Assembly (NCBI GenBank): GCA_022821965.1
Contig: JAJECN010000035.1
Location: forward strand, 76,222 to 140,221
Reading direction: 5' to 3'
Length of the DNA: 64,000 nucleotides
Source of the DNA: Candidatus Poribacteria bacterium
GTDB taxonomy: Bacteria > Poribacteria > WGA-4E > WGA-3G
The first letter of the stretch is position 1, and each line of letters begins with the position of its first letter. A program made the translations under genes and the position numbers. The notes below the pieces were generated by a model that worked only from the letters and a program-made list of their open reading frames with translations, ran no database searches and was not told the origin of the DNA. Below, one piece after another: positions 25,597 to 64,000 of the stretch.

Positions 25597-25659
25597 ACAC
25601 AGTGCTTTTTGAGATAATAAGGGTAGACAGTGGATAGATACAACTGCCTTTTAGATGTA

Positions 25660-26481: not shown

Positions 26482-26601
26482 GATTTTCTTCCTTTGGCTA
26501 TCAGGACAGGAATGTCACTCATCCACGTAAGATGGTTAAAGCAGTTCTCAACCGTTTTGAAAATCTTTAAAAAAGCAGACTATTTTCGCTTTCGGGCAAT
26601 T

Positions 26602-27777: not shown

Positions 27778-27796
27778 CTTAACCGAAAACTATCCC

Positions 27797-28777
27797 TCAT
27801 GACTCACGTGAAACGACATAGTCCGCAAGTTCTGATAAGGCGGTCCGGGCAGGTGTTTCAGGAAAGATTGCCAACGCTGCTTTGGCGCGGTCAGCATAGC
27901 CTTGGGCAACTTTCAGACAGTGCGGTTCGACCCCGTAGCTTTGAAACAGAGATTCAACAAAAGCAATTGCCTCGGTTTCATCCGTATCAGGGTGCAGCAT
28001 TTTTTCAAGCATCTGCTTCTCACTATCATTACAGACTGTTCGCGCATAAATAATAGGAAAGGTAAGTTTCCCTTCGCGGAGGTCACCGAATGCATCTTTC
28101 CCCAACTTATCAGAATCTTCTGTGAAATCAAGCAGATCATCAACGATCTGGAATGCGGTGCCAATCTGCTGTCCATAGACTGTGAGAGCCTCAATCTGTT
28201 GTGCCTCTGTTGTACCGAGATGCGCGCCAAGAGTGCAGGACGCAGCAATCAGTTTACCTGTTTTGAAACTGATAATCTTGAGGTATTCGTCTTCGGAGAT
28301 GTCAAAATCACCGCTCTTATATGCGTGGATAACCTCGCCTTCACACATCGCCTGCGTGGTATCGGCGAGGATCGCCATCGCTGGATCATCAGAACGGCGA
28401 GCCACAAGCATAGAAAGGACCCGTGCATGCAGGTAATCTCCGACGAGGACAGCAACCTTATTACCCCATTTCGTCTGTAACGTTTCACGTCCACGGCGGA
28501 TCGCAGCCTCGTCAAGTACATCGTCATGAACAAGCGATGCAACATGGATGAGTTCAACAACAGCAGCAAGCGTGTGGGCATCGCTCCCTTCATAGTCGCA
28601 GACTTTGGCAGAAAGCACAACGAGAATCGGACGGAGCCGTTTACCACCACCCTCCACAACATGTTGGACCGCCATGTCAACAAAAGTATATTCACTCGCG
28701 GTATGCTCGGTGAGCTTCGCCTCAATAGCACTGAGGTCGTCGGCAATTAATTCAACAATTTGATCAAAGTTGGACAT
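27797..28777 (-). CDS. Trans-polyprenyl diphosphate synthase
   Basis: FARM motif LVHDDVLDEAAIRRGRET and second Asp-rich motif (IVDDLLDF). The N-terminal 12 codons of the ORF-track call lie inside a repeat element, so ATG 28777 is preferred. Confidence 0.75.
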   Translation of the reverse strand: MSNFDQIVELIADDLSAIEAKLTEHTASEYTFVDMAVQHVVEGGGKRLRPILVVLSAKVCDYEGSDAHTLAAVVELIHVASLVHDDVLDEAAIRRGRETLQTKWGNKVAVLVGDYLHARVLSMLVARRSDDPAMAILADTTQAMCEGEVIHAYKSGDFDISEDEYLKIISFKTGKLIAASCTLGAHLGTTEAQQIEALTVYGQQIGTAFQIVDDLLDFTEDSDKLGKDAFGDLREGKLTFPIIYARTVCNDSEKQMLEKMLHPDTDETEAIAFVESLFQSYGVEPHCLKVAQGYADRAKAALAIFPETPARTALSELADYVVSRES

Positions 28778-28789
28778 AATGTAATAGTT

Positions 28790-28921
28790 CTTGGTTTTCA
28801 GAGTCAGAGTCATCGGTTATCAGTTATCGGTTTTCAGTTAAGAGAAATTCTGTAGCGATCACTTATAAAGCAACTGCCATAAAGCGTTAACTGATAACTG
28901 ACAACTGACGACTGACAACTA
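28790..28921. repeat. Palindromic intergenic element built from tandem heptamers (CAGTTAT/CGGTTTT ... ATAACTG/ACAACTG), STRR-like
   Basis: Left arm ggttatcagttatcggttttcagttaag, about 40-bp spacer, right arm gttaactgataactgacaactgacgactgacaact. The right arm ends at the hemL stop codon. Confidence 0.7.
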
Positions 28922-30262
28922 CTAACAGAGATTCGCCAATACCTGTGTTGCGGCTTGAACGGTTGTGTTGATATCCTCGTCAGAATGGACCAAAGAGACA
29001 AATCCTGCTTCAAATTGGGACGGGGCAACATAGACACCACGCTCCACGAGTCCCCAAAAATATTGCTGGTAACGTTCAGTATCCGCCGTGCGCGCGCCAT
29101 CAGCATCCGTGACAGTTTCCGGTGTAAAGTAGAGCATCAACATCGAACCGACTCGACTGTGCCACGCATCAATGCCGTGTTTTTGGGTTGCCTCAGCGAG
29201 GCCCTCCGCGAGGGTAGCGGCACTGCTCTCAAGTTGTTCATAAACCCCCGGTTCAGCGAGTTTCCGCAGCGTCGTTATACCCGCAGTAACGGCTAACGGA
29301 TTGCCAGACAGTGTCCCTGCCTGATAGACATCGCCTTCCGGGGCAACACACCGCATGATGTCCTGATTTCCGCCGTATGCCCCAACAGGTAAACCACCAC
29401 CGATAATCTTCCCTAAACAGGTCATGTCGGGCGTGACGTTATAGTAGGATTGGGCACCGCCATAAGCCACTCGAAAGCCGGTGATGACTTCATCAAAAAT
29501 AAGCACGATGCCGTGCTCTTCAGTGATTTCACGGAGTTGATTGAGGTAACCCTCGTATGGTGGGATGATGCCCATATTGCCCATAATCGGTTCGAGAATG
29601 AGACAGGCAATTTCGTCTGGATTGGCTTCTACCGCTTCGCGGACAGCCTCAGGGTCGTTAAAAGGTACAGTGAGCGTATTACGTGCGAAATCCTCTGGGA
29701 CGCCACCACTATCGGAAAGTCCAAATGTTGCAACACCGGAGCCTGCTTTCGCCAATAGGTAATCCACATGACCGTGATAGCAGCCATCGATTTTGAGGAT
29801 TTTATCGCGACCGGTATACCCGCGAGCGACGCGGATAGCACTCATTGTCGCCTCGGTACCAGAGTTGACGAGTCGCACCTGTTCAATCGAAGGCACCGCG
29901 TTTACAATGGTTTCAGCGAGTTCTGTCTCTCGTGTCGTCGGTGCCCCAAAACTCGTACCGTCCAACGCTGTCGAACGAATAGCCTCTATAACGCTCGGAT
30001 GTGCATGCCCCAAAACCAATGGACCCCATGAAGCAACATAATCAATATATTCGTTTCCATCAATGTCGTATACTTTTGAACCCTCACCGCGGGCAATGAA
30101 ACGGGGATGTCCACCGACTTTGCTGAAGTTTCGGACAGGACTGTTGACCCCACCTGGGATAACTCGTTGTGATTTTTGCCATGCGGCTAAGGATTTACTA
30201 CTCTCCAAAGCGTTTCCTCCAATTTTTCTATGGCTATCGGCTGACAGCCAATTTATAGCCAT
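28922..30262 (-). CDS. hemL: Glutamate-1-semialdehyde 2,1-aminomutase
   Basis: Full-length class III aminotransferase/GSA-AM similarity. PLP-binding Lys region ([18 protein letters not shown]). Confidence 0.9.
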
Positions 30263-31224
30263 TCCACAACGGACTTTGCGAAATAGGTTAAAATCATATC
30301 AGCACCTGCGCGCTTGATACTGTTGAGTACTTCCAAAGCGACCCGTTCCTCATCTACCCAACCGTTCTGCGCCGCTGCTTTAATCATAGCGTATTCACCG
30401 CTGACATTGTAAGCAGCAACAGGGACCTGAAATTCTGTTTTGACTCGATGAATGACATCCAGATAGGAAAGGGCAGGTTTCACCATAAGAACATCCGCGC
30501 CTTCTTGAATATCCAATGCAACCTCGCGCAACGCTTCTTCTGCATTTGCCGGATCCATCTGATAAGAACGTCGGTCACCAAACTGTGGTGTAGATTCCGC
30601 CGCTTCACGAAAAGGTCCGTAAAAGGCGGAAGCGTATTTGGCAGAATACGCCATAATTGGTACGTTTTCATACCCGTTTTCGTCCAACGCCTCGCGAATC
30701 GTCCCGACACGACCGTCCATCATATCCGAAGGCGCGATGACATCGGCACCGGCGCGTGCATGCGATAAACTCTCCTTAACGAGCAACTCCAGTGTCGGAT
30801 CGTTTTGTACTTCACCAGCCTCGATGACACCGCAATGCCCGTGGTCAGTGTATTCACAGAGACAGACATCTGTCATAACAAGCAGATCAGGCACCGCGTC
30901 CTTAACGGCTCGAACCGCCTGCTGAATGATACCGTCGTCGGCGTACGCCTCAGAACCGAGCGCATCTTTCGCCTCTGGAACCCCAAACAAGATTGTGCCG
31001 GGGATTCCGAGTGCGGCGAGTTCTTTCGCGGCGGTGACGAGAGTGTCAACCGAGTATTGGTAACATCCGGGCATTGCTGAAATTTCGGTTGCGGTGTTAT
31101 GTCCATGAACGACGAACATCGGATAGATGAGATCATCAACGGAGAGCGTTGTTTCACGAATGAGCCGCCGCAGGTTCTCATTCGCGCGAAGTCGCCTTGG
31201 ACGATAGATGGGAAAGGTACTCAT
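30253..31224 (-). CDS. hemB: Porphobilinogen synthase (delta-aminolevulinate dehydratase)
   Basis: ALAD family signatures ([10 protein letters not shown] active-site Lys region, Cys-rich metal site [12 protein letters not shown]). 10-nt overlap with hemL. Confidence 0.9.
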
Positions 31225-41349: not shown

Positions 41350-44322
41350 TCAATCGTTTTCTTTTTTAAGCGAGGCATGAAATATCCCGCTCCGCTTGGT
41401 AGCGATATAAAGTCTATCACCATCAATGGCAACGGAGATGACCCTGTTCGGCACCTCTGGCAAGATTTGTTCCCATTTTCCCCGGTTATCCAATTGATAG
41501 ACCCCCGCATTACCAGCCCCATAAATCGTCGTGCCAACCACAGCAATTCTATCTATAATAGTGCGGGTCCCTGCCTTATCAGTTAGCGTGCGCCAGTTTT
41601 CACCCTCATCTGATGTTAAGACACCTGCGTCTGTAGCGACGTGAACCGCTGAACCGGCAAAAACTATCTCGTTGAAATGCTCAAATTGGAACGGCAGCGT
41701 TGCAGTGAGGTCTTTCCATGTGTTACCACCATCAAGCGATCGAAAGAGATGCCCATTGCGTTTGCCAACATAGACAGTTTCGCCTGAAACAGCGAGAATG
41801 AAACGATTGGGATCATCGTTAGCAGGTTCATAGATGTCTACCAGTCCAGTGTCGAACCATTCAGGTTCGCCGCGTCTCCACCGCAGAAGTCGCCCCTGAT
41901 ACGTCACATAGAATGCATCGCCGCTAACCGCAAATTCGCGAGGAATACTCCGTGGCTTTGTATTTGTCGAACTACTAACTTTTTCAGGATCGTTAGCGGA
42001 ATCGTCTGCTATATTTTCTTTGGGGACTTTCTCTGATACCTCTATAGGGAGACTCCCGCCAAAAACAGGGATATCTTGAATAAGAACCAAGGTCCTGCCA
42101 CTGAAAGAAAGACGGAAAATGCGCAGTGCATCTTCCATGCCTAAGATGGGTGTGATGCCGTAAAGCACACCGTCAGAAACCGCCATTTTTGGAAAACCCA
42201 ACAGCCCCCCAGCGTCCAATCCATCTACTTTTGGTAACGCATTAGGACCGAAGCCCAAGGTTTTCCACGACCTCCCACCATCAATGGATTTAGCGATATT
42301 CATACCGGTATTTATATAGAGCGCGTTTTTGAATGCCAGTAACTTAAAAATTCCGGTCCCTACCATCCCTGCTATAAATGGATGCCACGATTCACCGCTA
42401 TCGGTTGAACGGGTAAGCCCAAAAAGCCCGGCTTTGAACAGTGTATTTTCGTCCACTCCGACAACCGGTAATACGCTCAGCATCATTGAATTCACCATCG
42501 AATTTAAGTCTAATTTGTTAGCTTCGGGGTGCGTCCATGTTTCCCCGCGATCAGTTGATCGGAATTGGAACCCGATATATCCGAGTGCCCAGAGCGTTTC
42601 TCCAGCAGTCAGGACTTTAATCCCCGGTGATATCCTTAACAAGATCGATTCATTTACGGGGGTTATTTCAGTCCACGAATCGCCCAAATCGGTTGAACGA
42701 AAAATTTCCCACATATTTTGCTTCTTCTCCATTGCTTCTTGTACAGATGCCTTCACTCGAGAAGAATTGAAAAGATCGGGTCCTGTCCCGACATAAAGGT
42801 TATTTTCGGAAACTGCCAAGGAATGGATAGCCAGAGTAGTATTCAATGGCAATTTTTCTAAACCGTGTCTTGACTTGATACGGTAGAGTCCTTGATTTGT
42901 CCCGACAAATACTGTGTTTTCAAACATAGCCAAGGCAAAGACTGTTACCTCTGTACCTTCATCATTCAATAGCGTCCACTGCTTACCCATATCTTCAGAT
43001 CGAAAAACACCTTTGTCTTGAAGCGCGAGGTACAACGCTTCATCCGTTATCGCTAATCCGATAGCAACTCCTTCTGGACGTGTCCCAAGCGATGTCCATA
43101 TCTCTCCACTATTGCTCGAACTGAACACTTCATTAACAGAGACAAGATAGAGCGTGTCATCTTTCTCTGCCATCGGTATCAGGTCGGCACCGGTGGAAGC
43201 GGTTGGAAAGTTAACAGCGGATGCAGGACTAACGAACGTCCATGCAGGAGCATCGGGTGTCAATCTATAGATACCGAGGTGCGAAGCGGCGTAGGTAGTG
43301 CCTTCTGAACTGACGAATAAGCCCGATATCAGACCCCCTCCCGGACCGCTTGCTTGTACCCACTGCTGCTTCATTGTCTCGGGTACTTCCTTCTCTATCT
43401 GCGCGGCAGCAGGCACAACAGGTTCCGAAACTTGTGGACCAGCACCTCTGCTCCTACCGGTAGTATCAAAACGTCCGGCTTGGTTCCGTAAATCCGGCTC
43501 CGCTTGTGTATCAAGGACGATAGGCGCGTCAATGATTTCAACAGTGGTTTCCGATTGGGCGTTTAAGTTGTAAGGCTTTTGAAAGCGGGCAAGGTACTGA
43601 GACCCGATACCGATCATTAGAATAAAAAAAATAGCAGCAGTACCAAAAGCTACCCACGGTAGCAGTGGTTTCCCAGACTGAGGCGCAATCGGCTTCATGT
43701 CGGCAACTTGCCGCATAATACTCTCCATGAAATCGGTAGACAATTGGACGCTGCCGAGCGTTTCACGAACTAAGAGTTCTTCTTCTTGTAAACGCTCTCG
43801 TGCCCGGCGAAGGCGACTCTTAATCGTGTTCACTGACACACCTAAGAACTTGCCAATCTCTTTCGTTGTCATTTCACCGAGATAATGGAGTGTCACCACT
43901 GTGCGTTCACTCTCCGGCAGCTTTTCCAGCAGTTCTTTGACGATTTCGTGGCGATGTTCCATAACTTCCATCTCCCGTTGATCCGATACATAATGTTTAT
44001 AAGAAGATTCCTCTATCTCCGTTACAGGTGTGTCCCCCAGGGATTGCATCGTAGGTTTTCTCTTTTGATGCCATCTCTTGCAAAGATTACTCGCAATAAC
44101 ATAAAGCCATCCAGCAAACTGGTTGGGATTCCTTAGTGTAGCGAGGTTTTTGTATACTTGGAGGAAGGCATCTTGGGCAATCTCTTCAGCGATATGAAAA
44201 TCTCCAATTTTCCGCCACGCAAGTGCGTGAACACTCTTTTGGTATTTTCGGACCAAGGCACTGAATGCCTCCTCATCACCTGCTAACACTCTGTAAATCA
44301 GTTGAACATCGTCTTCCACCAT
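41350..44322 (-). CDS. Single-polypeptide ECF sigma factor - transmembrane helix - BNR/Asp-box beta-propeller fusion protein
   Basis: Residues 1-190 carry sigma-70 regions 2 and 4 (ERTVVTLHYLGEMTTKEIGKFLGVSVNTIKSRLRRARERL). One TM helix (LLPWVAFGTAAIFFILMIGIG). About 700-aa extracytoplasmic region with eight or more SxDxGxxW Asp-box motifs. Confidence 0.7.
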   Translation of the reverse strand: MVEDDVQLIYRVLAGDEEAFSALVRKYQKSVHALAWRKIGDFHIAEEIAQDAFLQVYKNLATLRNPNQFAGWLYVIASNLCKRWHQKRKPTMQSLGDTPVTEIEESSYKHYVSDQREMEVMEHRHEIVKELLEKLPESERTVVTLHYLGEMTTKEIGKFLGVSVNTIKSRLRRARERLQEEELLVRETLGSVQLSTDFMESIMRQVADMKPIAPQSGKPLLPWVAFGTAAIFFILMIGIGSQYLARFQKPYNLNAQSETTVEIIDAPIVLDTQAEPDLRNQAGRFDTTGRSRGAGPQVSEPVVPAAAQIEKEVPETMKQQWVQASGPGGGLISGLFVSSEGTTYAASHLGIYRLTPDAPAWTFVSPASAVNFPTASTGADLIPMAEKDDTLYLVSVNEVFSSSNSGEIWTSLGTRPEGVAIGLAITDEALYLALQDKGVFRSEDMGKQWTLLNDEGTEVTVFALAMFENTVFVGTNQGLYRIKSRHGLEKLPLNTTLAIHSLAVSENNLYVGTGPDLFNSSRVKASVQEAMEKKQNMWEIFRSTDLGDSWTEITPVNESILLRISPGIKVLTAGETLWALGYIGFQFRSTDRGETWTHPEANKLDLNSMVNSMMLSVLPVVGVDENTLFKAGLFGLTRSTDSGESWHPFIAGMVGTGIFKLLAFKNALYINTGMNIAKSIDGGRSWKTLGFGPNALPKVDGLDAGGLLGFPKMAVSDGVLYGITPILGMEDALRIFRLSFSGRTLVLIQDIPVFGGSLPIEVSEKVPKENIADDSANDPEKVSSSTNTKPRSIPREFAVSGDAFYVTYQGRLLRWRRGEPEWFDTGLVDIYEPANDDPNRFILAVSGETVYVGKRNGHLFRSLDGGNTWKDLTATLPFQFEHFNEIVFAGSAVHVATDAGVLTSDEGENWRTLTDKAGTRTIIDRIAVVGTTIYGAGNAGVYQLDNRGKWEQILPEVPNRVISVAIDGDRLYIATKRSGIFHASLKKEND

Positions 44323-51902: not shown

Positions 51903-51966
51903 TTTTATAGTTATCGGTTATCGGTTGTCAGCAGGAATGGTTATCAGTAGTCGGCTGATAGCCATT
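51903..51966. repeat. Short heptamer-repeat palindromic element (AGTTATCGGTTATCGGTTGTCAGC ... GGCTGATAGCC)
   Basis: Fills the 75-bp gap between the Gfo/Idh/MocA start and the cupin stop. Confidence 0.5.
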
Positions 51967-52411: not shown

Positions 52412-52426
52412 TGTGTGTTTTCCTTT

Positions 52427-52496
52427 CCAATGCTGACGGCACACGGACTGTGCCTGCTACTCCAATGCTGACGGCACACGGACTGTGCCTGCTACT
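52427..52496. repeat. Perfect tandem duplication of a 35-bp unit containing a hairpin (GGCACAcggacTGTGCC)
   Basis: ccaatgctgacggcacacggactgtgcctgctact x2, between the cupin start and the stop of the Uma2 gene at 52502. Confidence 0.7.
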
Positions 52497-53200: not shown

Positions 53201-55834
53201 TTAATCTTCTGCCTCAATCACAGCTTGCGCTGCAGCGAGACGCGCAATCGGTACACGGAACGGGGAACACGACACGTAATCGAACCCTAATCCATAGCAG
53301 AACTTCACAGAACTTGGTTCGCCGCCGTGCTCACCACAGATACCGACTTTCAGATCGGGACGCGTCGCCCGTCCTTTCTCAGCACCGATTTGCAAGAGAC
53401 TACCGACACCATCTTGGTCAAGAACTTGGAACGGATCGTATTCAAGCACGCCGTTTCTGACGTAATCATCAAGGAATTTCACTGCGTCGTCACGACTCAT
53501 CCCAAATGTTGTCTGGGTGAGGTCGTTGGTGCCGTAGGAGAAAAACTCGGCTTCGGCAGCGATTTTGTCAGCGGTAAGTGCTGCACGTGGTAACTCAATC
53601 ATTGTACCGACGAGGTATTCAACCCGGGTCCCAGTTTCTTTAAACACGGCTTCCGCTGTGTCAACAACAACTTTGCGTTGCAAAGATAATTCGTTGATAT
53701 GCCCAACAAGCGGAATCATAATCTCTGGCAAAACTGTGATGCCGCGTTTTGAGACATCAACAGCGGCTTCAAAGATCGCACGCGCTTGCATTTCGGTTAT
53801 CTCTGGATAGACGATACCGAGTCTACAACCACGATGTCCAAGCATCGGGTTGAACTCGTGCAATTCCTCAACGCGCTCACGAAGTTTTTGCGGTTCAATA
53901 CCGATTCGCTCGGCAAGCTCAAGGATCTCAGCTTCACTTTTCGGTAAAAACTCATGGAGCGGTGGATCGAGGGTACGGATCGTAACTGGATAGTCTGCCA
54001 TCGCCTCAAAGATACCGATAAAATCTGAACGCTGATGGGGTAACAGTTTGACCAACGCTGCTTCGCGCTCTGCTGTGTCATCGGCGAGAATCATCTCACG
54101 GATAGCATCAATTCCTGTGCCAAAGAACATGTGCTCGGTACGGCAAAGCCCGATACCTTCTGCACCAAATTGTCTGGCATTTTTTGCGTCTTCAGGTGTA
54201 TCCGCATTTGTGCGAACACCTAAGGATCGTACCTCATCTGCCCATTCCATGAGCGTTCCGAATTGTCCACTCAATTCGGGTTGGATCAGTGCCACCTGTC
54301 CATCAAGAACATCACCTGTAGATCCGTTAAGCGTGATATAATCCCCTTCAGTGTAGCGTTTCCCCTCCGCGTAAAATTCCAATGCTTCTTCATTGATAAA
54401 CAGAGCAGAACAGCCCGCGACACAGCATTTTCCCATGCCTCGTGCGACAACAGCGGCGTGGCTTGTCATACCCCCACGTGCAGTGAGTATTCCCTCTGCG
54501 GCATCCATACCACCAATATCCTCTGGTGATGTTTCAGTCCGCACGAGGATAACCTTCTCGCCAGCGGCTGCGTGTTCTTCAGCGTGAAGCGCGGTAAAGA
54601 CAACCTTACCAACAGCTGCACCCGGAGAGGCAGGCAAACCTTGCGCGATAACCTCAACGTTAGCCGCCGGGTCAACGCTCGGGTGCAGCAGTTGATCCAA
54701 GTCGTTAGCAGGAACGCGTGTCAAAGCGGTCGGTTTATCGATTAAACCTTCCTCAACCATTTCAACAGCGATACGAACGGCAGCTTGACCGGTGCGTTTT
54801 CCGTTACGGGTCTGGAGCATGTAGAGTTTGCTATCCTGAATAGTAAACTCCACGTCTTGCATGTCCTTGTAATGTGTCTCAAGTCTCAAGCCGATATCGA
54901 CCAATTCATTATACGCATCAGGCAAAATGTTTCTCAATTCGGCGACCGGAAGGGGTGTGCGGATGCCAGCGACCACGTCTTCGCCCTGTGCGTTAATAAG
55001 GAATTCGCCGTAAAATTGGTTCGCGCCGGTCGAAGGATTACGGGTGAAGGCGACTCCTGATCCGGAGGTTCCGCCCATATTTCCGAACACCATGGCTTGG
55101 ACATTGACAGCGGTGCGTCCGAGTTCTTCGGAAATATCGTTAAGACGACGATAGGTAATAGCTCGCTGGTTGCCAGAGGATTCAAAAACGGCATCCCGTG
55201 CCATGTCTAATTGCTGACGGGGTTCATCAGGGAAATCACTTCCTGTGTGCTGTTTGACGGCACTCTTGAATTCATGGACAAGTGCCGATAAATCGTCGGC
55301 TTCTAATTCGGTATCTAATGTAACACCTTTTGACTTTTTCTTTTCTTCAAGTAAATGCTCAAACTCGTCGTGATCAACGTTGAGGACAACATTTCCGAAC
55401 ATTTGAATGAAGCGGCGGTATGAATCGTAAGCGAAACGTTCATTTTCGGATTTAACGATAAGTCCCTTAATCGCATCGTCATTCAAGCCGAGGTTGAGAA
55501 TCGTGTCCATCATACCTGGCATTGAGACTGCAGCACCAGAACGGACAGAAAGGAGGAGTGGATTTTCGGTATCACCGAATTTTGCGCCCAGGGCGTTTTC
55601 TAATTTTTCCAGATTCTCGTCAATCTGTTCGTCAAGCCCTGCGGGATACTGTTTGTCATTTTCATAGTATAATTTGCAAACTTCAGTGGAGATAGTGAAA
55701 CCCGGCGGAACGGGCACACCAAGGTTGCTCATCTCCGCGAGATTCGCTCCTTTTCCGCCAAGCAGCGTTCGCATTGTGGCATCACCGTCGCTTTCACCGG
55801 CTCCAAAGAAGTATACATACTTTGGTTGTGGCAT
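53201..55834 (-). CDS. ppdK: Pyruvate, phosphate dikinase
   Basis: Full-length PPDK architecture with the phospho-His region ([19 protein letters not shown]). ATG 55834 with GGAGG 6 nt upstream. Confidence 0.9.
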
Positions 55835-55850
55835 CAAAAGCCTCCTGTGT

Positions 55851-55958
55851 TATAGTTTTCAGTTATCAGTTATCAGTCGTCGGTTAAGAGATGTTTAGGC
55901 AAGAAAAATCAACATAACTGCCACACACTGAAAACTGACTACTGACAACTGATAACTA
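55851..55958. repeat. Palindromic heptamer-repeat element, same family as 28790..28921
   Basis: Left arm cagttatcagttatcagtcgtcggttaagag, spacer, right arm ctgaaaactgactactgacaactgataact. Fills the whole ppdK-pafA gap and ends 1 nt before the pafA stop. Confidence 0.7.
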
Positions 55959-55959
55959 T

Positions 55960-57318
55960 TCAGATTGAATAAATTGTTCGACTTGCTTCGTCAAATTCAG
56001 GTTTAAATGGATCCGTCGATAGATAAAGGATTTGGTACGGCTCATAAAGTTGGATATAACTCCAATTGACACCGCACAAGACCTTTCCTTCGTTGACTTT
56101 CTTGATAAATTTACCTCGAAACTTGGCTCGCGTGCGTTCAGGTGGGAATTGTTCAGCGTGCCGAATCTGCTCATCTCTGACAATTCGTTCGATCTCCGCA
56201 CGGCTCTCAAGGGTATAGTAGAGGCTTTCCTCCTGACGCACATTGTGGTACTTTAAATCGAGATGCTTCACCTGTGGTGCATCCCACTCAAGTCCACGTT
56301 TCGTCAGATAAGTTTGTAGCCACTTCCACTTAATGACCCAGTCTAACTCCCGGTCCAATTGCATCGGATCGCTTTCCAAGCAGGTAAGGACGTATTCCCA
56401 GCGCGCCATAACTTGGTTTGTTGTTGAATCAGATTCAGCTTGTTCAAGGTACCGCTTGGCACACTCTAAGTACTGCCACTGTAGTTCGACGGCGGAGAGT
56501 CGCCTTCCACTCTGGAGCTCAATCTGGTGTGTACATGTGGTATCATCAGAGATCGCTTGGATGGCTTTGACCGGGTCGCGGAGTGCGAACCTTTGCTGAA
56601 TGAAGTTGTCTTCAATCATACGGAGGATAATACCGGTTGTACCTACCTTCAAAAAAGTCGAAAATTCGGACATATTGGAATCCCCGACGATAACATGTAA
56701 ACGTCTGTACTTCTCACGGTCAGCATGCGGTTCATCGCGTGTGTTGATAATTCCACGTGCTGTCGTTGTGCCGATAGAAATTTCTTCTCGGATGTGCTCA
56801 GCACGTTGCGAGATCGCGTAATACCCGCGATGGCTCGGCTTAATCTTTCCTGCCCCTGCGAAGACCTGGCGAGTGACAAAGAACGGAATCAACTGCCCTG
56901 CCAACTGACGGAAGTCAACATGCCGCTCCATTAGGTAGTTCTCATGGCAGCCATAAGTATTTCCGGGGGTATCTAAGTTATTTTTAAAAATAGAAATCTT
57001 TCCATAGAACCCATCATTGCGCATGCGCCGTTCCGCAGTACTGGCGAGACGCGTAATAATGCGCTCACCTGCTTTATCGTGGGCAACGAGTTCGGCAACA
57101 TCATCACATTCTGGGGTTGCGTATTCTGGATGGCACCCAATGTCTTGGTAAAATCTCGCACCGTTTTCAAGGAAAACATCAGGGTACATTCTCCCAGCAA
57201 CAATTTCACGAAAGAGGTACATCACAACATTCTGAACAGTGAGTGTCTTTCTACGCGGGACATCTGGTGTCCAAATAATTCCGAATTCAGTTTCCAGCCC
57301 ATAAATTCTGCGCTTCAT
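55960..57318 (-). CDS. pafA: Pup--protein ligase PafA
   Basis: MKRRIYGLETEFGI N-terminus and RNGARFYQDIGCHPEYATPEC. Collinear with actinobacterial PafA. 452 aa. Confidence 0.9.
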   Translation of the reverse strand: MKRRIYGLETEFGIIWTPDVPRRKTLTVQNVVMYLFREIVAGRMYPDVFLENGARFYQDIGCHPEYATPECDDVAELVAHDKAGERIITRLASTAERRMRNDGFYGKISIFKNNLDTPGNTYGCHENYLMERHVDFRQLAGQLIPFFVTRQVFAGAGKIKPSHRGYYAISQRAEHIREEISIGTTTARGIINTRDEPHADREKYRRLHVIVGDSNMSEFSTFLKVGTTGIILRMIEDNFIQQRFALRDPVKAIQAISDDTTCTHQIELQSGRRLSAVELQWQYLECAKRYLEQAESDSTTNQVMARWEYVLTCLESDPMQLDRELDWVIKWKWLQTYLTKRGLEWDAPQVKHLDLKYHNVRQEESLYYTLESRAEIERIVRDEQIRHAEQFPPERTRAKFRGKFIKKVNEGKVLCGVNWSYIQLYEPYQILYLSTDPFKPEFDEASRTIYSI

Positions 57319-57382
57319 CGGCTACCCCTTCACAAACATTTCTTCTGTTGAAAGTTTGCCCCTAACTACCAAGTATAACAGA

Positions 57383-58102
57383 TTAGGACAATAAGGTTGT
57401 AACTTCGTCAGTAGAAAGCCGTCGAAATTTTCGCCGAGCGGCGGTTTGTTCAAGACACGCCACTTCTATCGTTTCCGGCGTGATTTCATAATCATCTTCT
57501 GCCTCCGCTTCAACGGTTTGAAAGGCTTCCGTTACAAGTTGAAGTGCCGCTGACATCTCCAACTCATCTGAATAATCTTGTTCGAGAATTTCTGTTATTG
57601 TTGTGGCGCGCCCACCAATAACAGCGTATTTCTCCTCTTCTGAATAGATACCATCAAACGCAATGTGATAAATTTGATTTCTCTGTAATCCAGCACTTGT
57701 TGAAGCATCGGTCGTCCCTATCTCACACACAAGGAGCTCAATCTCTAAGGGTTTCGCGTCCCATGCCTGCGCGACCGCTCCCATGTGTTGTGAATAGAGA
57801 TTCGTTAACCACTTTGCCGTGACATCTTCTCGATAGTAGCGAAAGCCTTTAATCTCGGATTCGCGAATGCCAGCGACACGTAACGCCTCATACTCCGCAA
57901 TCCTACCTGCCGCTGCGAGGGCAATCCTATCGTAAATTTCGGAGACCTTAAAGGTGGTCTTGCGTGGATTCTCGGCAACCATTAGGAGTCCATCTCGATA
58001 CTCTAAGACAACGACCTCTTTCGCCTGGGCGATGCCGCGACGGACGAAATCCTCTTTATCCTGACGAATTTGTTCCGGTGAAACATAATAGGGTGTGGAC
58101 AT
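57383..58102 (-). CDS. prcA: 20S proteasome alpha subunit
   Basis: MSTPYYVSPEQIRQDKEDFVRRGIAQAKEVVVLEYRDGLLMVAENP aligns along its full length with actinobacterial PrcA. Confidence 0.9.
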   Translation of the reverse strand: MSTPYYVSPEQIRQDKEDFVRRGIAQAKEVVVLEYRDGLLMVAENPRKTTFKVSEIYDRIALAAAGRIAEYEALRVAGIRESEIKGFRYYREDVTAKWLTNLYSQHMGAVAQAWDAKPLEIELLVCEIGTTDASTSAGLQRNQIYHIAFDGIYSEEEKYAVIGGRATTITEILEQDYSDELEMSAALQLVTEAFQTVEAEAEDDYEITPETIEVACLEQTAARRKFRRLSTDEVTTLLS

Positions 58103-58111
58103 ATCTGTATT

Positions 58112-58210
58112 TTAGTTCTCGGTTATCAGTTCTCGGTCTTCAGAAAGAAAAACACGTGTGTCCCTGAAAACTATATGTCGATCTCCGTGACAACCAAAGA
58201 CTGAAAACCA
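58112..58210. repeat. Heptamer-repeat element in the prcB-prcA intergenic gap
   Basis: tagttctcggttatcagttctcggtcttcag ... ctgaaaac ... gactgaaaacc. Contains a CACGTG palindrome. Confidence 0.55.
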
Positions 58211-58215
58211 TTCCT

Positions 58216-59010
58216 CTATAGGCGCGATATAAGATCGCGATATAACGCCTCAACAGTCGCCTGAGGAATCTCGGCGACTCCTTCTTCAGTAATAGTGTAA
58301 AGCGTTGGAAAGATTTTTCGGATGAGATCAGGACCGCCCGTCGCGATATCCTCATCAGCGGCATCCCAGAGTGCTTCTGCCACAATCTCCAAGGCATCCT
58401 GACGGGTGATCTCCGGCGTGTGTCGTTTTTTAAGGGTTGTGCGGGCATCCTTACCGCCGGAGCCGATCGCGTAATAGTCGTCTTCCTCATAACGACCACC
58501 GACAGCATCATATTTGAAAATTCTACCACGCTGTCGTTTTAAGTCATAACCGGCAAAGAGGGGCAAGACAATTAAACCCTGCATGGCAAGCCCAAGGTTG
58601 GAGCGCACCAAGTGTGAGAGGAAATTCGCCTGTCCTTCAAGGCTGAGGCTAACCCCTTCTGTCTTTTCGTAAAATTCGACCTCAACTTGAAAGAGTTTTG
58701 CCATTTCAATACAGGGACCAGCAGCACCTGCAACAGCAATCGCTGAGTGCCGATCAACTGGATAAACCTTCTGGATTCGACGCTCGCCGACTTGATAGCC
58801 CTCCGTTGCTTGTCGGTCACCAGCCATGATGACCCCGCCATCGTAAACAACCGCCAAAACGGTTGTGCCTTCGTAAGGACGGAGGGACGACTCTGTTGTA
58901 CGGACACTTGAGGTTGAATCCGGTGAATTGAGCGTCGCCAATAATTCAGGGTGACGACGCTTGAGGATTTGAAAAAAGTTGGAGGTGCCGTAATCATCAA
59001 GTTCAAGCAC
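58216..59010 (-). CDS. prcB: 20S proteasome beta subunit with N-terminal propeptide
   Basis: Propeptide followed by TTVLAVVYDGGVIMAGDRQAT (catalytic Thr1 context). Starts 2 nt after the pup stop. Confidence 0.9.
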   Translation of the reverse strand: MLELDDYGTSNFFQILKRRHPELLATLNSPDSTSSVRTTESSLRPYEGTTVLAVVYDGGVIMAGDRQATEGYQVGERRIQKVYPVDRHSAIAVAGAAGPCIEMAKLFQVEVEFYEKTEGVSLSLEGQANFLSHLVRSNLGLAMQGLIVLPLFAGYDLKRQRGRIFKYDAVGGRYEEDDYYAIGSGGKDARTTLKKRHTPEITRQDALEIVAEALWDAADEDIATGGPDLIRKIFPTLYTITEEGVAEIPQATVEALYRDLISRL

Positions 59011-59012
59011 TC

Positions 59013-59210
59013 CTACTGCCCTCCACGTTGAATATAATTTTCGACAAATTCTTGTGAATCCTCTTCCAAAATTTCATCAATTTCATCAAGGAGCGAGTCC
59101 AAATCTTCAACGAACTCCTCGTCCATTTCGCCAGGTTCAACATTAGGTTGAATCTCTTCGGTTTCCTCAACATCGCGCTTGATGTGTTCCTGTCGTTTTT
59201 CAGTAGACAT
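59013..59210 (-). CDS. pup: Prokaryotic ubiquitin-like protein Pup (C-terminal GGQ)
   Basis: 65 aa, acidic and disordered-like. C-terminal ...YIQRGGQ matches the Pup family. AGGAGA SD 6 nt upstream. Confidence 0.85.
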   Translation of the reverse strand: MSTEKRQEHIKRDVEETEEIQPNVEPGEMDEEFVEDLDSLLDEIDEILEEDSQEFVENYIQRGGQ

Positions 59211-59223
59211 TGTGCTCTCCTTT

Positions 59224-59362
59224 AATAGTTGTGGATTGCCAGTTATCAGTAGTTATCAGTTAATATCTTGTAGCAGTTGTCTTATAGGTAACTACCACAG
59301 CACATCTCTTTAACCGATAACTGAAAGGTTTTTCGCAGAAAAACCGCCCTGACAACTGACGA
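59224..59362. repeat. Palindromic heptamer-repeat element in the dop-pup gap
   Basis: Left arm ccagttatcagtagttatcagttaat. Right arm ccgataactgaaagg ... ctgacaactgacgactat. Embedded 8-bp hairpin GGTTTTTCgcaGAAAAACC. Ends at the dop stop. Confidence 0.7.
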
Positions 59363-60874
59363 CTATTCTGATGCGTTGCCTCGAATCTCCTTAACGAGTT
59401 CCTCTGCTGTACAGTTGTTCAGTAACTCACCTACGATCTTTTGTGTACCGAAGTGAGGGCGATCCATCATAATTTTGTCAAGCCCGCCCGATTTACCGAT
59501 AAAAATCATTGAGTTCCAACTGGCACTATAAATGTGCTTTGGAAACTTTCGTAAACAGGTACCGCGAAAGTATGCCCGGGTGTCCACAGGTGGATAGTGC
59601 ATCGCATGTACAATCTCTTCACGGTCAAGTAAGCGTTTAACATGTCCGTTTTTCAACAATCTAATGTAAAGCCCTTTGTCCGGACGTATATCATGGTACT
59701 GCAGATCAAGCATCTGCACATGCGAGTCATCCCACTTGTATCCGTGTCGTTTGCGGTAGGCATCTATCAACTTCTTCTTGATAACCCAATCTAAGTGTTG
59801 ACTCAACCGCATCGGGTCAATTTCCAAGTTATCAAGAACGTATTGCCATTTTTCAAGGACATCCTCAACGACAGGTGTTCGTTCCTCAGGGGCAAGATGT
59901 TTCTGCGCGAGTTTGAGGTACGCCCGCTGCACTTCTATTGGTGTCCACTCCTGCCCATCTGCAAGTTCTATCTGTTCTCGGCATGAGAGATCTCGCGAGA
60001 TATGTTTTATTGCAGCGACCGGGTCCTTTAAACTGAATTTTTTGCCAATCACACCTTTCTCAATCAACTGGAGCACAATAGAGGTAATACCAGCCTTGAG
60101 ATAGATGCTTAACTCAGACATATTAGAGTCGCCAACGATCACATGCAAGCGTCGATAGAGTTTGTCATCAGCATGCGGTTCATCGCGCGTATTAATCAAT
60201 GGACGATTCACCATAGTGCTGAGTCCTACCTCTTTTTCAAAGAAATCGGCACGCTGGGAGATTTGATAATCCGCTTCGTCGCTCCCGTTCTCCGCACCAA
60301 CTTTTCCGCTCCCGGTGATAATAATACGTGTAACAAGGAAGGGTATCAACCCATCAACGATTGCATCAAACGGCACTTTGCGCGACATGAGGTAGTTTTC
60401 ATGAGAGCCGTAACTATGCCCCTTGTAATCGGTATTGTTTTTATAGATGATAATTTCTTGGTTGTCAAGCAGAAGGCGTTCTGCCGTGATCCTGCTGACT
60501 TCCAATATTAATTCACCCGCTTTTTCGTATAGAAGCAGATCGCGTGCGTTTGCACACTCCGGCGTGCAATACTCAGGGTGCGCATGATCTACGTAGTAAC
60601 GCCCTCCATTTATCAAGATATCGTTAACGGCACTGTTCGTATCTGCCTCAGTAATAGTCGGTTCCGCCTCCGCAAGAAACCCACGAGCGTCTACCAACGG
60701 ACTCTCTTGGTCGTAATCCCACGTGACAGAAGAATTCGCACTTGGCGCATCATCCCGAGAAGTTTTATAGGCATTAACGACCAAGGTAGAAGCAGCAACC
60801 GGATCTTGCTCACGTGCATTTTTGACTGAGATGCCATACTCAGTCTCTGTTCCCATTATTATTGGTATTTCCAT
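59363..60874 (-). CDS. dop: Pup deamidase/depupylase Dop
   Basis: MEIPIIMGTETEYGIS ... INGGRYYVDHAHPEYCTPEC. Dop-type insertion relative to PafA. ORF-track start trimmed to ATG 60874. Confidence 0.85.
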   Translation of the reverse strand: MEIPIIMGTETEYGISVKNAREQDPVAASTLVVNAYKTSRDDAPSANSSVTWDYDQESPLVDARGFLAEAEPTITEADTNSAVNDILINGGRYYVDHAHPEYCTPECANARDLLLYEKAGELILEVSRITAERLLLDNQEIIIYKNNTDYKGHSYGSHENYLMSRKVPFDAIVDGLIPFLVTRIIITGSGKVGAENGSDEADYQISQRADFFEKEVGLSTMVNRPLINTRDEPHADDKLYRRLHVIVGDSNMSELSIYLKAGITSIVLQLIEKGVIGKKFSLKDPVAAIKHISRDLSCREQIELADGQEWTPIEVQRAYLKLAQKHLAPEERTPVVEDVLEKWQYVLDNLEIDPMRLSQHLDWVIKKKLIDAYRKRHGYKWDDSHVQMLDLQYHDIRPDKGLYIRLLKNGHVKRLLDREEIVHAMHYPPVDTRAYFRGTCLRKFPKHIYSASWNSMIFIGKSGGLDKIMMDRPHFGTQKIVGELLNNCTAEELVKEIRGNASE

Positions 60875-60983
60875 CTTTTTATTAGCCATCAGCCATCGGA
60901 AACTATCAGTAAGGAGTGGGTTGTGGAATTCGGGCAATATGCAACCGCCACACGCGCGACTGACCGCTGATTGCTGACCGCCA
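60875..60983. repeat. Variant heptamer-repeat palindromic element (CAGCCAT ... CTGACCG) in the arc-dop gap
   Basis: agccatcagccatcgg ... gactgaccgctgattgctgaccgccatc. Right arm ends at the arc stop codon. Confidence 0.6.
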
Positions 60984-62813
60984 TCAAAGAAATGTACCGC
61001 CCCGGGCCACTCGGACATTCTGTGTCTTTTCTTGTGCAGGTTCATTAATCAAAGCACGGATATTGACAATCTTTTCACCCTTCCTGCCTGAGATTTTCGC
61101 CCAATCATCAGGATTTGTGGTGTTCGGGAGGTCCTCATTTTCGTGGTATTCTTCCCGGATAGCGGCTTTAAGATCGTCAAGACACATCCCTTTGTGGGTC
61201 CCATCAGAAGTAATAAAACGTTTGATCGCCGCTTTCTTCGCACGTGAAACGATGTTTTCGATCATTGCACCGCTGACAAAATCTTTGAAGAAGAGAGTTT
61301 CCCGTTCGCCGCGGGCGTAAGTGACTTCAATAAACCGATTTTCGTCAGTCGTCGCATACATTTCGTTTACAGCCTCATCAATGAAATGCTTCGCAATAGC
61401 TTCAGTATCCCCATTAAACTGCTGAAAAGTGGTTTCAGCGAAGGGGAGATCCGGTGTCAGATATATAGAGAAAATATCTTTAGCACCATCTAAGTTGGGG
61501 CGGTCAATTTTAATTTTGACATCGAGTCTGCCGGGTCTTAAAACAGCAGGATCAAGGAGGTCTTGTCGGTTACTGGCACCAATGACGATGACATCCCGGA
61601 GGTTCTCAACCCCATCAATCTCAGAAAGGAACTGCGGCACAAGCGTTGATTCCATATCCGATGAGATTCCCATGCCTCTGGAGCGGAAGAGGGAATCCAT
61701 TTCATCGAAGAAAATGATAACCGGAAATCCTTCTTTCGATTTATCGCGCGCCTTCTGGAAGACTTCACGGATTTTACGCTCAGTTTCACCAACGTATTTA
61801 TTTAGAAGTTCCGGTCCCTTAATATTAATGAAATACCCGCGCACTTCATCTCTGCCAGTCTCTTTACGGACCCGCTCAGCGATACTACTGGCGACAGCTC
61901 GGGCTATTAAGGTTTTACCACAACCCGGAGGACCGTAGAGGAGAACACCTTTCGGGGGTGAGAGGTTAAATTCCTTATATTCGTTAGGGTAAAGGTATGG
62001 CAGCTCAACGGCATCGCGAATCGCCTCTATCTGGGTATCAAGTCCACCAATGTCAGTATAACCGATATCCGGTACTTCTTCGAGTAACAGATCTTCGACC
62101 TCCCGTTTCGGGAGCTTTTCCATGAGCATGCTGGTCGTATGATTGAGAAGGACGTTATCTCCGGTCTTCAGCGTTTCCTCTTGGAGCGGTTCAGCTATCC
62201 TGACGACACGTTCTTCATCAGTGCGGAGACTTATAATGGCAAGTTCATCGGTAATGCGTTCTTTGATTTTGACAACGTCTCCATGCCGTTCAGGCGTTTT
62301 AACGTCAACGACGTTCATCCCGCTATTGACAATAACCTCCTGCCCAACCTCTATATCTTTCTCTTTGAGTACTGGATCAAGATTGACGCGCCATTTCCTA
62401 CCACTCACATCAATATCAACAGTGCCATCTTCGTTTGACGCGAGGAAGACTCCATAATTATTGGGCGGTGCACTGAGCTGGTCGACCTTTTCCTTGAGGA
62501 TCTCCAGTTTCTCTTTCGCCTCTTGCAGAGTGCTCGTGAGTTTCTTGTTGCGCCGGTGTGCCGTCATCAACTCACGTTGCATTTCATAGAGCCGAGTCTC
62601 AAGGTCCTTGACATATACAGCACCCTGTTGCTGCCGCATGCCTTCCAGTTCACCTTCCAGCATGTCAATGGTTCCTTGGAGCGTACGAATTTGCTGCTCA
62701 TACGAGACAGCGTCGTACGTCTCTTGCGCCTCAAAGGAATCCTTGGAATTTCCTCTTTTGATACCCATACGTGAAATTCTCTCTTTCCAAAACGATTTTT
62801 CCGACCCACCCAC
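60984..62813 (-). CDS. arc: Proteasome-associated AAA+ ATPase ARC/Mpa
   Basis: N-terminal coiled coil, OB domains, Walker A GPPGCGKTLIARAVAS. 609 aa. Sits at the head of the arc-dop-pup-prcBA-pafA array. Confidence 0.9.
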   Translation of the reverse strand: MGGSEKSFWKERISRMGIKRGNSKDSFEAQETYDAVSYEQQIRTLQGTIDMLEGELEGMRQQQGAVYVKDLETRLYEMQRELMTAHRRNKKLTSTLQEAKEKLEILKEKVDQLSAPPNNYGVFLASNEDGTVDIDVSGRKWRVNLDPVLKEKDIEVGQEVIVNSGMNVVDVKTPERHGDVVKIKERITDELAIISLRTDEERVVRIAEPLQEETLKTGDNVLLNHTTSMLMEKLPKREVEDLLLEEVPDIGYTDIGGLDTQIEAIRDAVELPYLYPNEYKEFNLSPPKGVLLYGPPGCGKTLIARAVASSIAERVRKETGRDEVRGYFINIKGPELLNKYVGETERKIREVFQKARDKSKEGFPVIIFFDEMDSLFRSRGMGISSDMESTLVPQFLSEIDGVENLRDVIVIGASNRQDLLDPAVLRPGRLDVKIKIDRPNLDGAKDIFSIYLTPDLPFAETTFQQFNGDTEAIAKHFIDEAVNEMYATTDENRFIEVTYARGERETLFFKDFVSGAMIENIVSRAKKAAIKRFITSDGTHKGMCLDDLKAAIREEYHENEDLPNTTNPDDWAKISGRKGEKIVNIRALINEPAQEKTQNVRVARGGTFL

Positions 62814-62971
62814 ACGGGTAAAATCCGGTACGCGGATAATCGGATTCGATTGGGTTTCAGATCTACACCCAACACTTTTATTTAGAGTATAGCACGCTGA
62901 AAAAATTGTGTCAAGAAAAAGTTGATATTGATATTTCTATTTTTCCCAATGCTTTTAGATGACGTTGTATA

Positions 62972-62992
62972 GCGAGGGATAAAAACCTCGCC
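62972..62992. repeat. GCGAGG-gataaaaa-CCTCGC hairpin (GGCGAGG family), 40 nt past the recA stop
   Basis: Same stem sequence as the copies at 18439, 44444 and 45926. Confidence 0.45.
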
Positions 62993-63032
62993 ATACAAGC
63001 AAACGTAGAAACCTCACCGTCTGCTTTACGTA

Positions 63033-64000
63033 TTACGACACGACATCAACCGTGTCGTGAGCCTCGTCCTCATCGTAGTCGGCATCTTCAGGAATCGCAC
63101 CAGCAATAGCGTCTTGAGCCACACTGAGTGCTTCCCGTATTTTCGCCTCAATTTCCGCTGCGGCATCTGTGTTCTCTTCCAGATATTTCTTGGCATTCGT
63201 TCTGCCTTGACCAATTCGCTCACCGTTGTAGGCAAACCAAGAACCGCTCTTCTGGATAAACTCATTGTCCACAGCAATATCTAAGAGATTTCCTTCTTTA
63301 GAGATGCCCTGTCCGAAGGTAACGTCATATTCTCCCTCCTTGAAAGGAGGAGCTACCTTATTTTTCACCACTTTGAAACGTACACTGCTCCCAAGAATCT
63401 CATTACCATCTTTAATCTGAGTGCCGCGACGGAGTTCCAACCGAATGGAGGCATGGAACTTGAGCGCAAGTCCACCCGGAGTTGTATCTGGGTTACCGAA
63501 CATGATCCCAATTTTCTGCCGAATCTGATTTGTAAAAATAACACACGTTTTTGATTTATTCGTAACACCGGACAACTTCCGCAACGCTTTGGACATCAAG
63601 CGAGGCAGCAAACCAACGTGTGCGTCACCCATTTCACCCTCAATTTCGGCTTGAGGGGTCAAGGCGGCTACAGAGTCAACAACTACCAGATCAATCGCAC
63701 CGCTGCGGATCAGCGTTTCGACAATCTCTAACGCCTGCTCACCGGCATCGGGTTGCGCAATCAACAGGTTTTCCATATTGACCCCAATATTTCGAGCATA
63801 GGAGGTGTCAAGCGCGTGTTCAACATCAACGAACACCGCGGTGCCGCCCAACTTCTGTGCTTCAGCAACAATATGGAGTGCTAATGTGGTTTTTCCAGTG
63901 CCTTCATGTCCGAAAATTTCAATGATCCTGCCGCGCGGGACACCTCCCACACCGAGCGCGAGATCCAGCGAGAGAGAACCCGTTGGGATTGCTTCAACAG
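63033..64000 (-). CDS. recA: Recombinase RecA; N-terminus runs off the right window edge
   Basis: Walker [22 protein letters not shown]1/L2 loop regions. The frame stays open to nt 64000 and encodes ...[18 protein letters not shown]. Confidence 0.9.

Follow-up and report, generated by a model that had tools for sequence, protein, structure and literature searches.

The closest described relatives of the locus considered here are the Pup-proteasome systems of mycobacteria and other Actinobacteria. Outside Actinobacteria, such systems were reported in 2008 from Nitrospirae, Verrucomicrobia, a deltaproteobacterium and a planctomycete (Iyer et al., 2008, PMC2588565), and NC10, Armatimonadetes, Nitrospinae, Firmicutes and Proteobacteria were added in 2020 (Hecht et al., 2020, PMC7947786). 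The present analysis concerns a stretch of 64,000 nucleotides from a Candidatus Poribacteria bacterium (GCA_022821965.1, contig JAJECN010000035.1, positions 76,222 to 140,221 of the forward strand; hereafter the window), in which six open reading frames on the minus strand, at 62813..55960, form in sequence the gene series arc-dop-pup-prcB-prcA-pafA. This locus very probably encodes a complete and functional Pup-proteasome system that belongs to the Poribacterial chromosome and is vertically inherited within the phylum. This reading is based on which genes are present and in what order, on their catalytic and docking residues, and on purifying selection and conservation across the phylum, with the biochemistry taken over by homology from the mycobacterial system. 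Poribacteria are reportedly among the candidate phyla with a Pup-like tag, and a search of the open-access literature found no paper tying Poribacteria or sponge symbionts to pupylation.

The six genes are as follows; all were read as open reading frames, and arc and dop were in addition aligned with their orthologues.

60984..62813, minus strand: arc, the Mpa homologue
59363..60874, minus strand: dop, the deamidase/depupylase, from its conserved start (longest open reading frame, 61045..59363)
59013..59210, minus strand: pup, 65 residues
58216..59010, minus strand: prcB, the 20S beta subunit
57383..58102, minus strand: prcA, the 20S alpha subunit
55960..57318, minus strand: pafA, the Pup ligase, 452 residues

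Two starts were placed by comparison with orthologues. The conserved Met of the arc orthologues aligns with M16 of the longest open reading frame, and arc probably starts at ATG 62768 (594 residues); dop probably starts at ATG 60874 (503 residues), at the conserved start MEIPIIMGTETEYG. Because the starts move to these two codons, arc and dop do not overlap. The pup gene is preceded by a good Shine-Dalgarno match, AAAGGAG, and prcB begins with a GTG only 2 nt past the pup stop, its own Shine-Dalgarno sequence, GGAGGG, being made by the R-G-G codons of Pup itself. This tight arrangement is general, as the pup-prcB gap is -1 to 2 nt in 76/76 Poribacteria loci that have both genes.

Profile scores from NCBIfam and Pfam, read against the curated bit cut-offs, place five of the six proteins above the NCBIfam cut-offs and PafA slightly under. 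ARC scores 716.8 bits with TIGR03689 (cut-off 504.75) and also matches PF17758 and PF16450, both proteasomal OB domains, and PF00004 (AAA); Dop scores 580.9 bits with TIGR03688 (cut-off 492.3), PrcB 288.8 bits with TIGR03690 (cut-off 192) and PrcA 240.3 bits with TIGR03691 (cut-off 139), and Pup passes both of its models, TIGR03687 (50.6 bits, cut-off 41.45) and PF05639 (59 bits, cut-off 27). For PafA the values are 519.8 bits with TIGR03686 (cut-off 551.3) and 514 bits with PF03136; TIGR03686 is its best match, exceeding its score of 426.9 with the Dop model.

Motifs and solved structures agree with these assignments. ARC has a coiled coil at the N-terminus, a pair of OB domains, an AAA module and a C-terminal tail, ...RGGTFL, and in a search of solved structures it aligns with Mpa of Mycobacterium tuberculosis across residues 75-593 (598 bits), the alignment stopping about 15 residues short of the C-terminus. 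Dop strongly matches solved Dop structures, is 46% identical to the window PafA and has about 37 extra residues in its N-terminal region, which correspond to the Dop-loop, a published discriminator of Dop from PafA (PMC7947786). PafA is without this loop, keeps the GLETEFG, YQDIG (with the catalytic Asp), GCHENYL and RDEPHAD motifs and aligns full-length with Corynebacterium glutamicum PafA (4B0T). PrcB carries a 48-residue propeptide followed by the mature Thr at residue 49 (TTVLAV...), the position from which mature PDB chains align; Asp17 and Lys33 of the catalytic set (mature numbering) are present on direct reading, and the match to the Rhodococcus beta subunit reaches 228 bits. PrcA matches the Rhodococcus alpha subunit at 166 bits, was also aligned to the M. 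tuberculosis alpha subunit, and keeps the gating N-terminus MSTPYYVSPEQI and the pocket residue Lys52. The Pup sequence, MSTEKRQEHIKRDVEETEEIQPNVEPGEMDEEFVEDLDSLLDEIDEILEEDSQEFVENYIQRGGQ, terminates in ...LLDEIDEILEEDSQEFVENYIQRGGQ (...ENYIQRGGQ). An earlier sequence-only reading of this DNA had named all six genes at this place and in this order, with Pup ending in GGQ, and the open reading frames, family models and structure matches bear this out.

The six components also occur, in the same relative order, in the mycobacterial and actinobacterial systems. The likeness extends to the C-terminal half of Pup (LLDEID..L.E....FV..Y.Q.GGQ), to the Dop-loop, to the coiled coil, double OB domain and AAA module of ARC, to the propeptide, Thr1, Asp17 and Lys33 of the beta subunit, and to Lys52 and the gating N-terminus of the alpha subunit. 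There are also differences: the host is a member of Poribacteria, the six genes are contiguous, long repeat-bearing gaps separate some of them, the ARC tail is GGTFL rather than GQYL, PrcA has Gln26 rather than Arg26, and ppdK follows pafA, with no pafBC here. In M. tuberculosis, by contrast, mpa and dop are presumably separated by other genes, as are prcA and pafA, with pafBC after pafA. The window PafA shares 36-47% identity with its actinobacterial counterparts.

A close parallel comes from a further candidate phylum, likewise not actinobacterial. Candidatus Moduliflexus flocculans (GCA_000739515.1, locus L082 of our comparison) has the identical six-gene order, with pup and prcB 1 nt apart; however, it differs in its canonical AGQYL tail, in PrcA Lys26, in a Pup ending in GGE and in a prcB-prcA gap of 14 nt without repeat elements. 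UBact tags are said to end in R[T/S]G[E/Q] and to be distinct from Pup; unlike a tag so defined, the one described here passes both Pup models, ends in RGGQ and is of Pup type. The locus resembles those of the 'UBact'/Pup homologues of Gram-negative phyla in that a Pup-like tag lies beside PafA/Dop homologues and proteasome genes (PMC2588565, PMC7947786). Overall, the Poribacterial operon is an uncharacterised but ordinary example of a known system, its host being one that has received little study, and it has already been annotated automatically, as Poribacterial proteins carry the NCBI name 'Pup--protein ligase [Candidatus Poribacteria bacterium]'.

PafA was scanned against a genome collection holding a single genome for each GTDB species; of the 549 relatives returned, the best 80 were compared by tblastn with the six operon proteins and the flanking RecA and pyruvate-phosphate dikinase (ppdK). 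These best 80 matches are all metagenome-assembled genomes (MAGs) of Candidatus Poribacteria, with 71-98% PafA identity, and several of the loci lie on closed, single-contig chromosomes of 5-7 Mb, for example OX638352.1 (98%). The 120 matches listed from a database of 5.8 billion proteins are 73-96% identical, and all named ones are Poribacteria. The host is thus non-actinobacterial, as had been claimed, and is Candidatus Poribacteria, an uncultured sponge-associated lineage, a taxonomic assignment that rests on the MAG matches. Wherever a Poribacteria locus spans the region, it shows the order arc-dop-pup-prcB-prcA-pafA. Upstream of the operon most loci have recA, and many have ppdK downstream of it; the identity gradient of recA and ppdK matches that of the operon genes. 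The last 12 residues of Pup are nearly invariant across 76 Poribacteria loci, and the PrcA N-terminus and Lys52 are likewise invariant or nearly so. On this comparative evidence, the operon is a phylum-wide trait of Poribacteria and very probably vertically inherited within the phylum.

Some variation was seen within the phylum. Insertions of 0.8-2.2 kb split the operon in some Poribacteria, with arc-dop gaps of 800-2220 nt in four loci (L042, L043, L067 and L051) and a dop-pup gap of 1745 nt in another (L047). In addition, Pup ends in GGE in one subclade (L054, L057, L060-L066, L068, L069 and L071) that retains dop, a combination that fits the second role of Dop as a depupylase.

The ratio of nonsynonymous to synonymous substitution rates (dN/dS; Nei-Gojobori, window against locus L009) is about 0.02-0.10 for all six genes, figures that are rough and upper-level as synonymous sites are near saturation. 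The operon is accordingly ancestral, and it is clearly under constraint. A profile-free outgroup search of 1.84 billion cluster representatives (50% identity) gave 2074 PafA/Dop clusters at E <= 1e-30, and taxon labels were obtained for about 15 of the 30 representatives looked up. The closest labelled non-Poribacterial PafA is that of Moduliflexus, 50.5% identical to the window PafA, with an Ilumatobacteraceae actinobacterium at 46.7% and six further Actinobacteria at 36-41%. Other labelled PafA/Dop clusters come from Tectomicrobia, Nitrospinota and Gemmatimonadota, with a Dop from Candidatus Entotheonellia. The sequence-only reading had described pupylation outside Actinobacteria as occurring in a few Gram-negative lineages; these homologues, the Moduliflexus operon and the existing NCBI names show that the system is no novelty or rarity in such lineages.

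In a neighbour-joining tree of about 30 sequences (Kimura distances, 200 bootstrap replicates), Poribacterial PafA is monophyletic at 97%, and groups with three unlabelled metagenomic clusters at 99%; the further grouping of the Poribacteria clade with Moduliflexus reaches 36%. The labelled Actinobacteria form a clade at 88%. PafA and Dop are split at 100%, with the window Dop in the Dop clade, where it joins the Entotheonellia Dop at 86%. Placement of these genes firmly inside Actinobacteria had been named beforehand as the outcome that would remove the unusual host, and Poribacterial PafA was nested within Actinobacteria in 0/200 replicates. It follows that the Poribacterial ancestor either acquired the operon or already had it, sampling and method being too thin to give source, direction or timing.

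Two unusual relatives of PafA were also encountered. The closest non-Poribacterial ones, P0121 (677 residues, locus L081, 9001-11034; 56% identity) and P0125 (669 residues; 49%), each join a PafA-like domain to an N-terminal extracytoplasmic-function (ECF) sigma factor with regions 2 and 4. On the single contig looked at, transposases flank the fusion and proteasome genes are absent from its neighbourhood. P0121 keeps most motifs, whereas P0125 is probably a pseudo-enzyme because the GxETE motif and the catalytic Asp are lost.

By homology, the Poribacterial system would operate as follows. Pup would be synthesised with a C-terminal Gln, which Dop would deamidate to Glu, and PafA would activate this Glu with ATP and ligate it to lysines of target proteins. 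The ARC hexamer would catch Pup by its N-terminal coiled coils, and would unfold the substrate and thread it through the OB and AAA rings while docked on the 20S alpha ring by insertion of its C-terminal G-x-aromatic-Leu tail into the Lys52 pocket. The Thr1 beta subunits would then degrade the substrate, and Dop would also be able to take Pup off.

It should be noted that several points weigh against a complete and functional system of this kind. PafA scores under the NCBIfam trusted cut-off of TIGR03686, and its phylogeny is a neighbour-joining analysis of about 30 sequences with few labelled taxa. Furthermore, a Phe in the ARC tail replaces the penultimate Tyr reported as the main binding determinant, and PrcA is without Arg26, the residue whose substitution by Ala abolishes PafE-dependent degradation in M. 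tuberculosis. The last two points concern the docking of ARC on the 20S core and require a closer look.

The terminal carboxylate of a docking tail pairs with alpha Lys52, and the penultimate Tyr of PafE/Bpa contacts alpha Arg26, an R26A substitution abolishing PafE-dependent degradation in M. tuberculosis (bioRxiv 10.1101/249060; PMC6466877). The penultimate Tyr has been described as the main binding determinant (PMC8755798), and Tyr608 of Mpa contacts Glu119, not Arg26 (PMC9599533). The tail of the window ARC (about 60987-61001) is GGTFL, so that the GxYx docking motif with its penultimate Tyr is absent, and the Gly, an aromatic residue and the terminal Leu are all retained (G-x-aromatic-L). 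PrcA position 26 (about 58025-58027) is Gln, in place of the Arg26 of M. tuberculosis. The tails of the deeper Poribacteria clades are GGAYL, GGSYL or GGTYL, and GGTFL or GGTFF is found only in the window's clade (L001-L037). Among 72 Poribacteria loci, 17 combine Arg or Lys at position 26 with a Tyr tail, 25 combine Gln26 with Tyr and 30 combine Gln26 with Phe; Phe with Arg26 or Lys26 was found in none. The loci with Arg26 or Lys26 are deep-branching and all have Tyr tails, and Lys52 is invariant among the loci tabulated. A strict co-variation of the Phe tail with PrcA position 26 was considered and rejected, as Gln26 also pairs with Tyr and the pattern is nested.

The tail of the window ARC thus represents a conservative, fixed Tyr-to-Phe change in a G-x-aromatic-Leu motif, the pocket for which had already lost its cation. 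The GGTFL ending had been read correctly from the sequence, and only its oddity as a non-Tyr tail needs toning down, as the change is confined to one subclade and leaves the G-x-aromatic-L pattern intact. We think that ARC-20S docking still works, possibly with altered affinity. A stronger interpretation is that the subclade has been rewired, ARC with its Phe tail facing Gln26 docking differently or more weakly, and pupylation serving largely as a reversible regulatory mark rather than a degradation signal. The stepwise tail and pocket pattern, with Phe never beside Arg26 or Lys26, the effect of R26A on PafE-driven degradation (bioRxiv 10.1101/249060) and the weight given to the penultimate Tyr (PMC8755798) are all in line with such a change. 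However, Phe preserves the aromatic ring, the carboxylate partner Lys52 is invariant, dN/dS of prcA, prcB and arc is below 0.1, and the contact of Mpa Tyr608 is with Glu119 rather than Arg26 (PMC9599533); in addition, GGTF[LF] is fixed in about 30 genomes despite saturated synonymous sites, which argues for a working contact. We consider the rewired state improbable, and a degradative Pup-proteasome system the better reading.

The second feature that sets this locus apart is the length and content of its spacers, which are listed here with the candidate promoter upstream of arc; the arc-dop entry is from sequence and fold.

62886..62914, minus strand: candidate promoter upstream of arc, TTGACA, 17-nt spacer, TATACT, TG extension, 11/12 matches
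60890..60983, minus strand: arc-dop spacer with degenerate heptamer repeats, GGTCAGC AATCAGC GGTCAGT ... CTTACTGATAG
59211..59362, minus strand: dop-pup spacer with a heptamer-arm hairpin element, then the pup Shine-Dalgarno sequence AAAGGAG
58103..58215, minus strand: prcB-prcA spacer, 113 nt, an imperfect long hairpin with heptamer-repeat arms GGTTTTCAGTCTTTGGTTGTCA ... ACCGAGAACTGATAACCGAGAACT
55838..55959, minus strand: pafA-ppdK spacer with a full copy of the element, (CAGTNNN)x5 ... (NNNACTG)x5, minimum free energy -38 kcal/mol

The promoter candidate sits in the recA-arc gap, 3' of a strong hairpin that trails the recA stop; promoter and terminator scans of the region gave total site counts equal to those of shuffles, so this site is a candidate only. 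The dop-pup spacer has a predicted fold of -51 kcal/mol and a period-7/10 repeat, and includes a small hairpin, GGTTTTTCTGCGAAAAACC (59345..59327), which is a terminator-like match. The prcB-prcA spacer contains direct repeats (14 nt x2 and 11 nt x2), and its last ~12 nt (AAAATACAGAT) are conserved ahead of the prcA ATG.

Many spacers of the window's clade share a recurrent hairpin element, which consists of tandem heptamers CRGTNNN on the left, complementary heptamers (NNNACYG)n on the right and a variable core. An inner pair, TTAAAGAG...CTCTTAA, is often present, and sometimes also a small hairpin, G(G/A)TTTTTCT(G/A)CGAAAAA(C/T)C, that is found in the spacers of other loci too. Besides the copy in the prcB-prcA spacer, the window holds copies at 28814-28914, 51910-51926, 55838-55959 and 59211-59362, that in the arc-dop spacer (60890-60983) being degenerate. 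The arm pattern CRGTNNNCRGTNNNCRGT has 10 matches in the window against 0.04 expected, 9/10 of them intergenic, and in related loci 61/61 arms are non-coding, nearly all of them within L001-L033. The hairpins predicted for the element range from -31 to -51 kcal/mol. Positions of the element differ between closely related genomes, which fits turnover. The element is multi-copy, intergenic and palindromic, as are repeats of the repetitive extragenic palindromic (REP) and MITE type (miniature transposable elements with inverted repeats). Like REP and bacterial interspersed mosaic elements (BIME) and MITE-like repeats, it is short, biased to intergenic positions, hairpin-forming and located in operon junctions, and its tandem-heptamer arms recall the heptameric short tandemly repeated repetitive (STRR) sequences of cyanobacteria. 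Unlike all of these, its central cores vary between copies and it is confined to one Poribacteria subclade. A literature search found no published account of heptamer-arm hairpin elements.

One could suppose that the 113-nt prcB-prcA spacer is instead conserved for a dedicated role, as a regulatory RNA or an internal promoter region that sets the alpha:beta subunit ratio, given that it can form a long imperfect hairpin (minimum free energy -32.5 kcal/mol) and that prcB and prcA overlap in no Poribacterium examined. This idea has very little probability, and a dedicated regulatory RNA was rejected on the insignificance of the fold (z = -1.6 against shuffles) and on non-conservation, the gap ranging from 5 to 277 nt across Poribacteria and the spacers of the window's clade being unalignable even between close relatives save for the last ~12 nt. 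Against Rfam, the stretch 55800-63100 (E <= 1) drew only spurious matches to miRNAs and snoRNAs, all on hairpins, and the prcB-prcA spacer has no real match; in the pafA-ppdK spacer the matches were to miRNA precursors and mirror its hairpin shape. The heptamer-arm element also occurs in unrelated intergenic regions (28814-28914, 51910-51926 and 55860-55951). The prcB-prcA spacer is better explained as a probable single insertion of a subclade-specific, REP/MITE-like hairpin family, by which the operon junctions would have been inflated. It is exactly 113 nt long, and the earlier description of it as repeat-filled is fair; the repeats are arms of the hairpin element, however, and the spacer is not a conserved feature of the operon.

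Other junctions vary as well. The arc-dop gap elsewhere in Poribacteria ranges from -17 to 2220 nt, and prcA and pafA overlap by 4-11 nt in most deeper Poribacteria clades. In the window, pup-prcB is the only junction left tightly coupled after the element insertions. By analogy with the REP elements of enterobacterial operons, the hairpin elements could shield the mRNA segments upstream of them or reduce read-through. A combined scenario for the window's subclade, in which the docking interface was remodelled in two steps (Arg26 or Lys26 to Gln, then Tyr to Phe) and heptamer-arm elements in most operon junctions could uncouple gene expression, is unlikely, although less so than the rewired state discussed above.

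Finally, the operon might be supposed to lie on an actinobacterial contig that ended up in a Poribacteria genome by mis-binning or mis-assembly, or to be an island recently acquired by horizontal transfer. This notion could appeal to the prevalence of Pup-proteasome systems in Actinobacteria and to identities with actinobacterial proteins of 36-47% for PafA and roughly 55-60% for ARC (an alignment read by eye, not computed). It has virtually no probability left, as it is refuted by the best-80 Poribacteria matches, the shared gene order (found in up to 80 species-level genomes, single-contig chromosomes among them, with recA and ppdK usually on either side) and the tree, and is ruled out further by the identity gradient shared with recA and ppdK, an even GC content of 44-51% and ordinary chromosomal surroundings, with no mobility genes flanking the operon in the window.

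Those surroundings comprise a haem cluster, a leucine-rich-repeat protein and genes of the Gfo/Idh/MocA, Uma2, PD40 and ECF sigma families. Of the genes that the sequence-only reading had listed, Uma2 (two genes), three Gfo/Idh/MocA and two PD40 (TolB-like repeat) genes are present, although the TolB-like pair is weak evidence for the diderm envelope it had drawn in part from them. The ECF sigma fusion that it had named also exists, as a 990-residue protein (41350-44322, minus strand) with an N-terminal ECF sigma factor (regions 2 and 4) and a long C-terminal BNR/sortilin-type repeat region. A same-strand haem/sirohaem biosynthesis cluster (20601-31224, minus strand) encodes glutamyl-tRNA reductase, porphobilinogen deaminase, a uroporphyrinogen-III synthase/methylase fusion, 5-aminolevulinate dehydratase, a sirohaem-synthase-like protein and a class-III aminotransferase that is likely HemL, on a match at family level only, and is interspersed with a Uma2 gene and a polyprenyl synthetase gene. 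At 18552-20267 (minus strand) lies the gene for the leucine-rich-repeat protein, of 571 residues, with 22.5 tandem copies of a 66-nt unit (repeats at 18582-20067); eukaryote-like repeat proteins are common in sponge symbionts. In addition, a perfect tandem duplication of 35 nt (x2, 52426-52496) covers the start of a cupin gene and the gap before a Uma2 gene.

With this locus, a whole phylum of uncultured sponge symbionts joins the lineages that have a complete and selectively maintained Pup-proteasome system, a system that current reviews still treat as essentially actinobacterial. The gain is modest, as the proteins are correctly annotated automatically, the phenomenon has been known since 2008 and the anatomy of the operon gives no hint of a new mechanism. 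The shared gene order in Moduliflexus and the homologues in Tectomicrobia/Entotheonellia, Nitrospinota and Gemmatimonadota show that the system is widespread in uncultured Gram-negative lineages, which is relevant to the origin and spread of pupylation. Small leads that can be tested are the Phe tail together with Gln26 and the family of intergenic repeats. If proteasome activation or subunit stoichiometry proved to be altered, the lineage would offer a natural experiment on the GQYL/HbYX-type motif, and the combined scenario, if true, would mean that REP-like elements tune the proteolysis operon of an uncultured symbiont.

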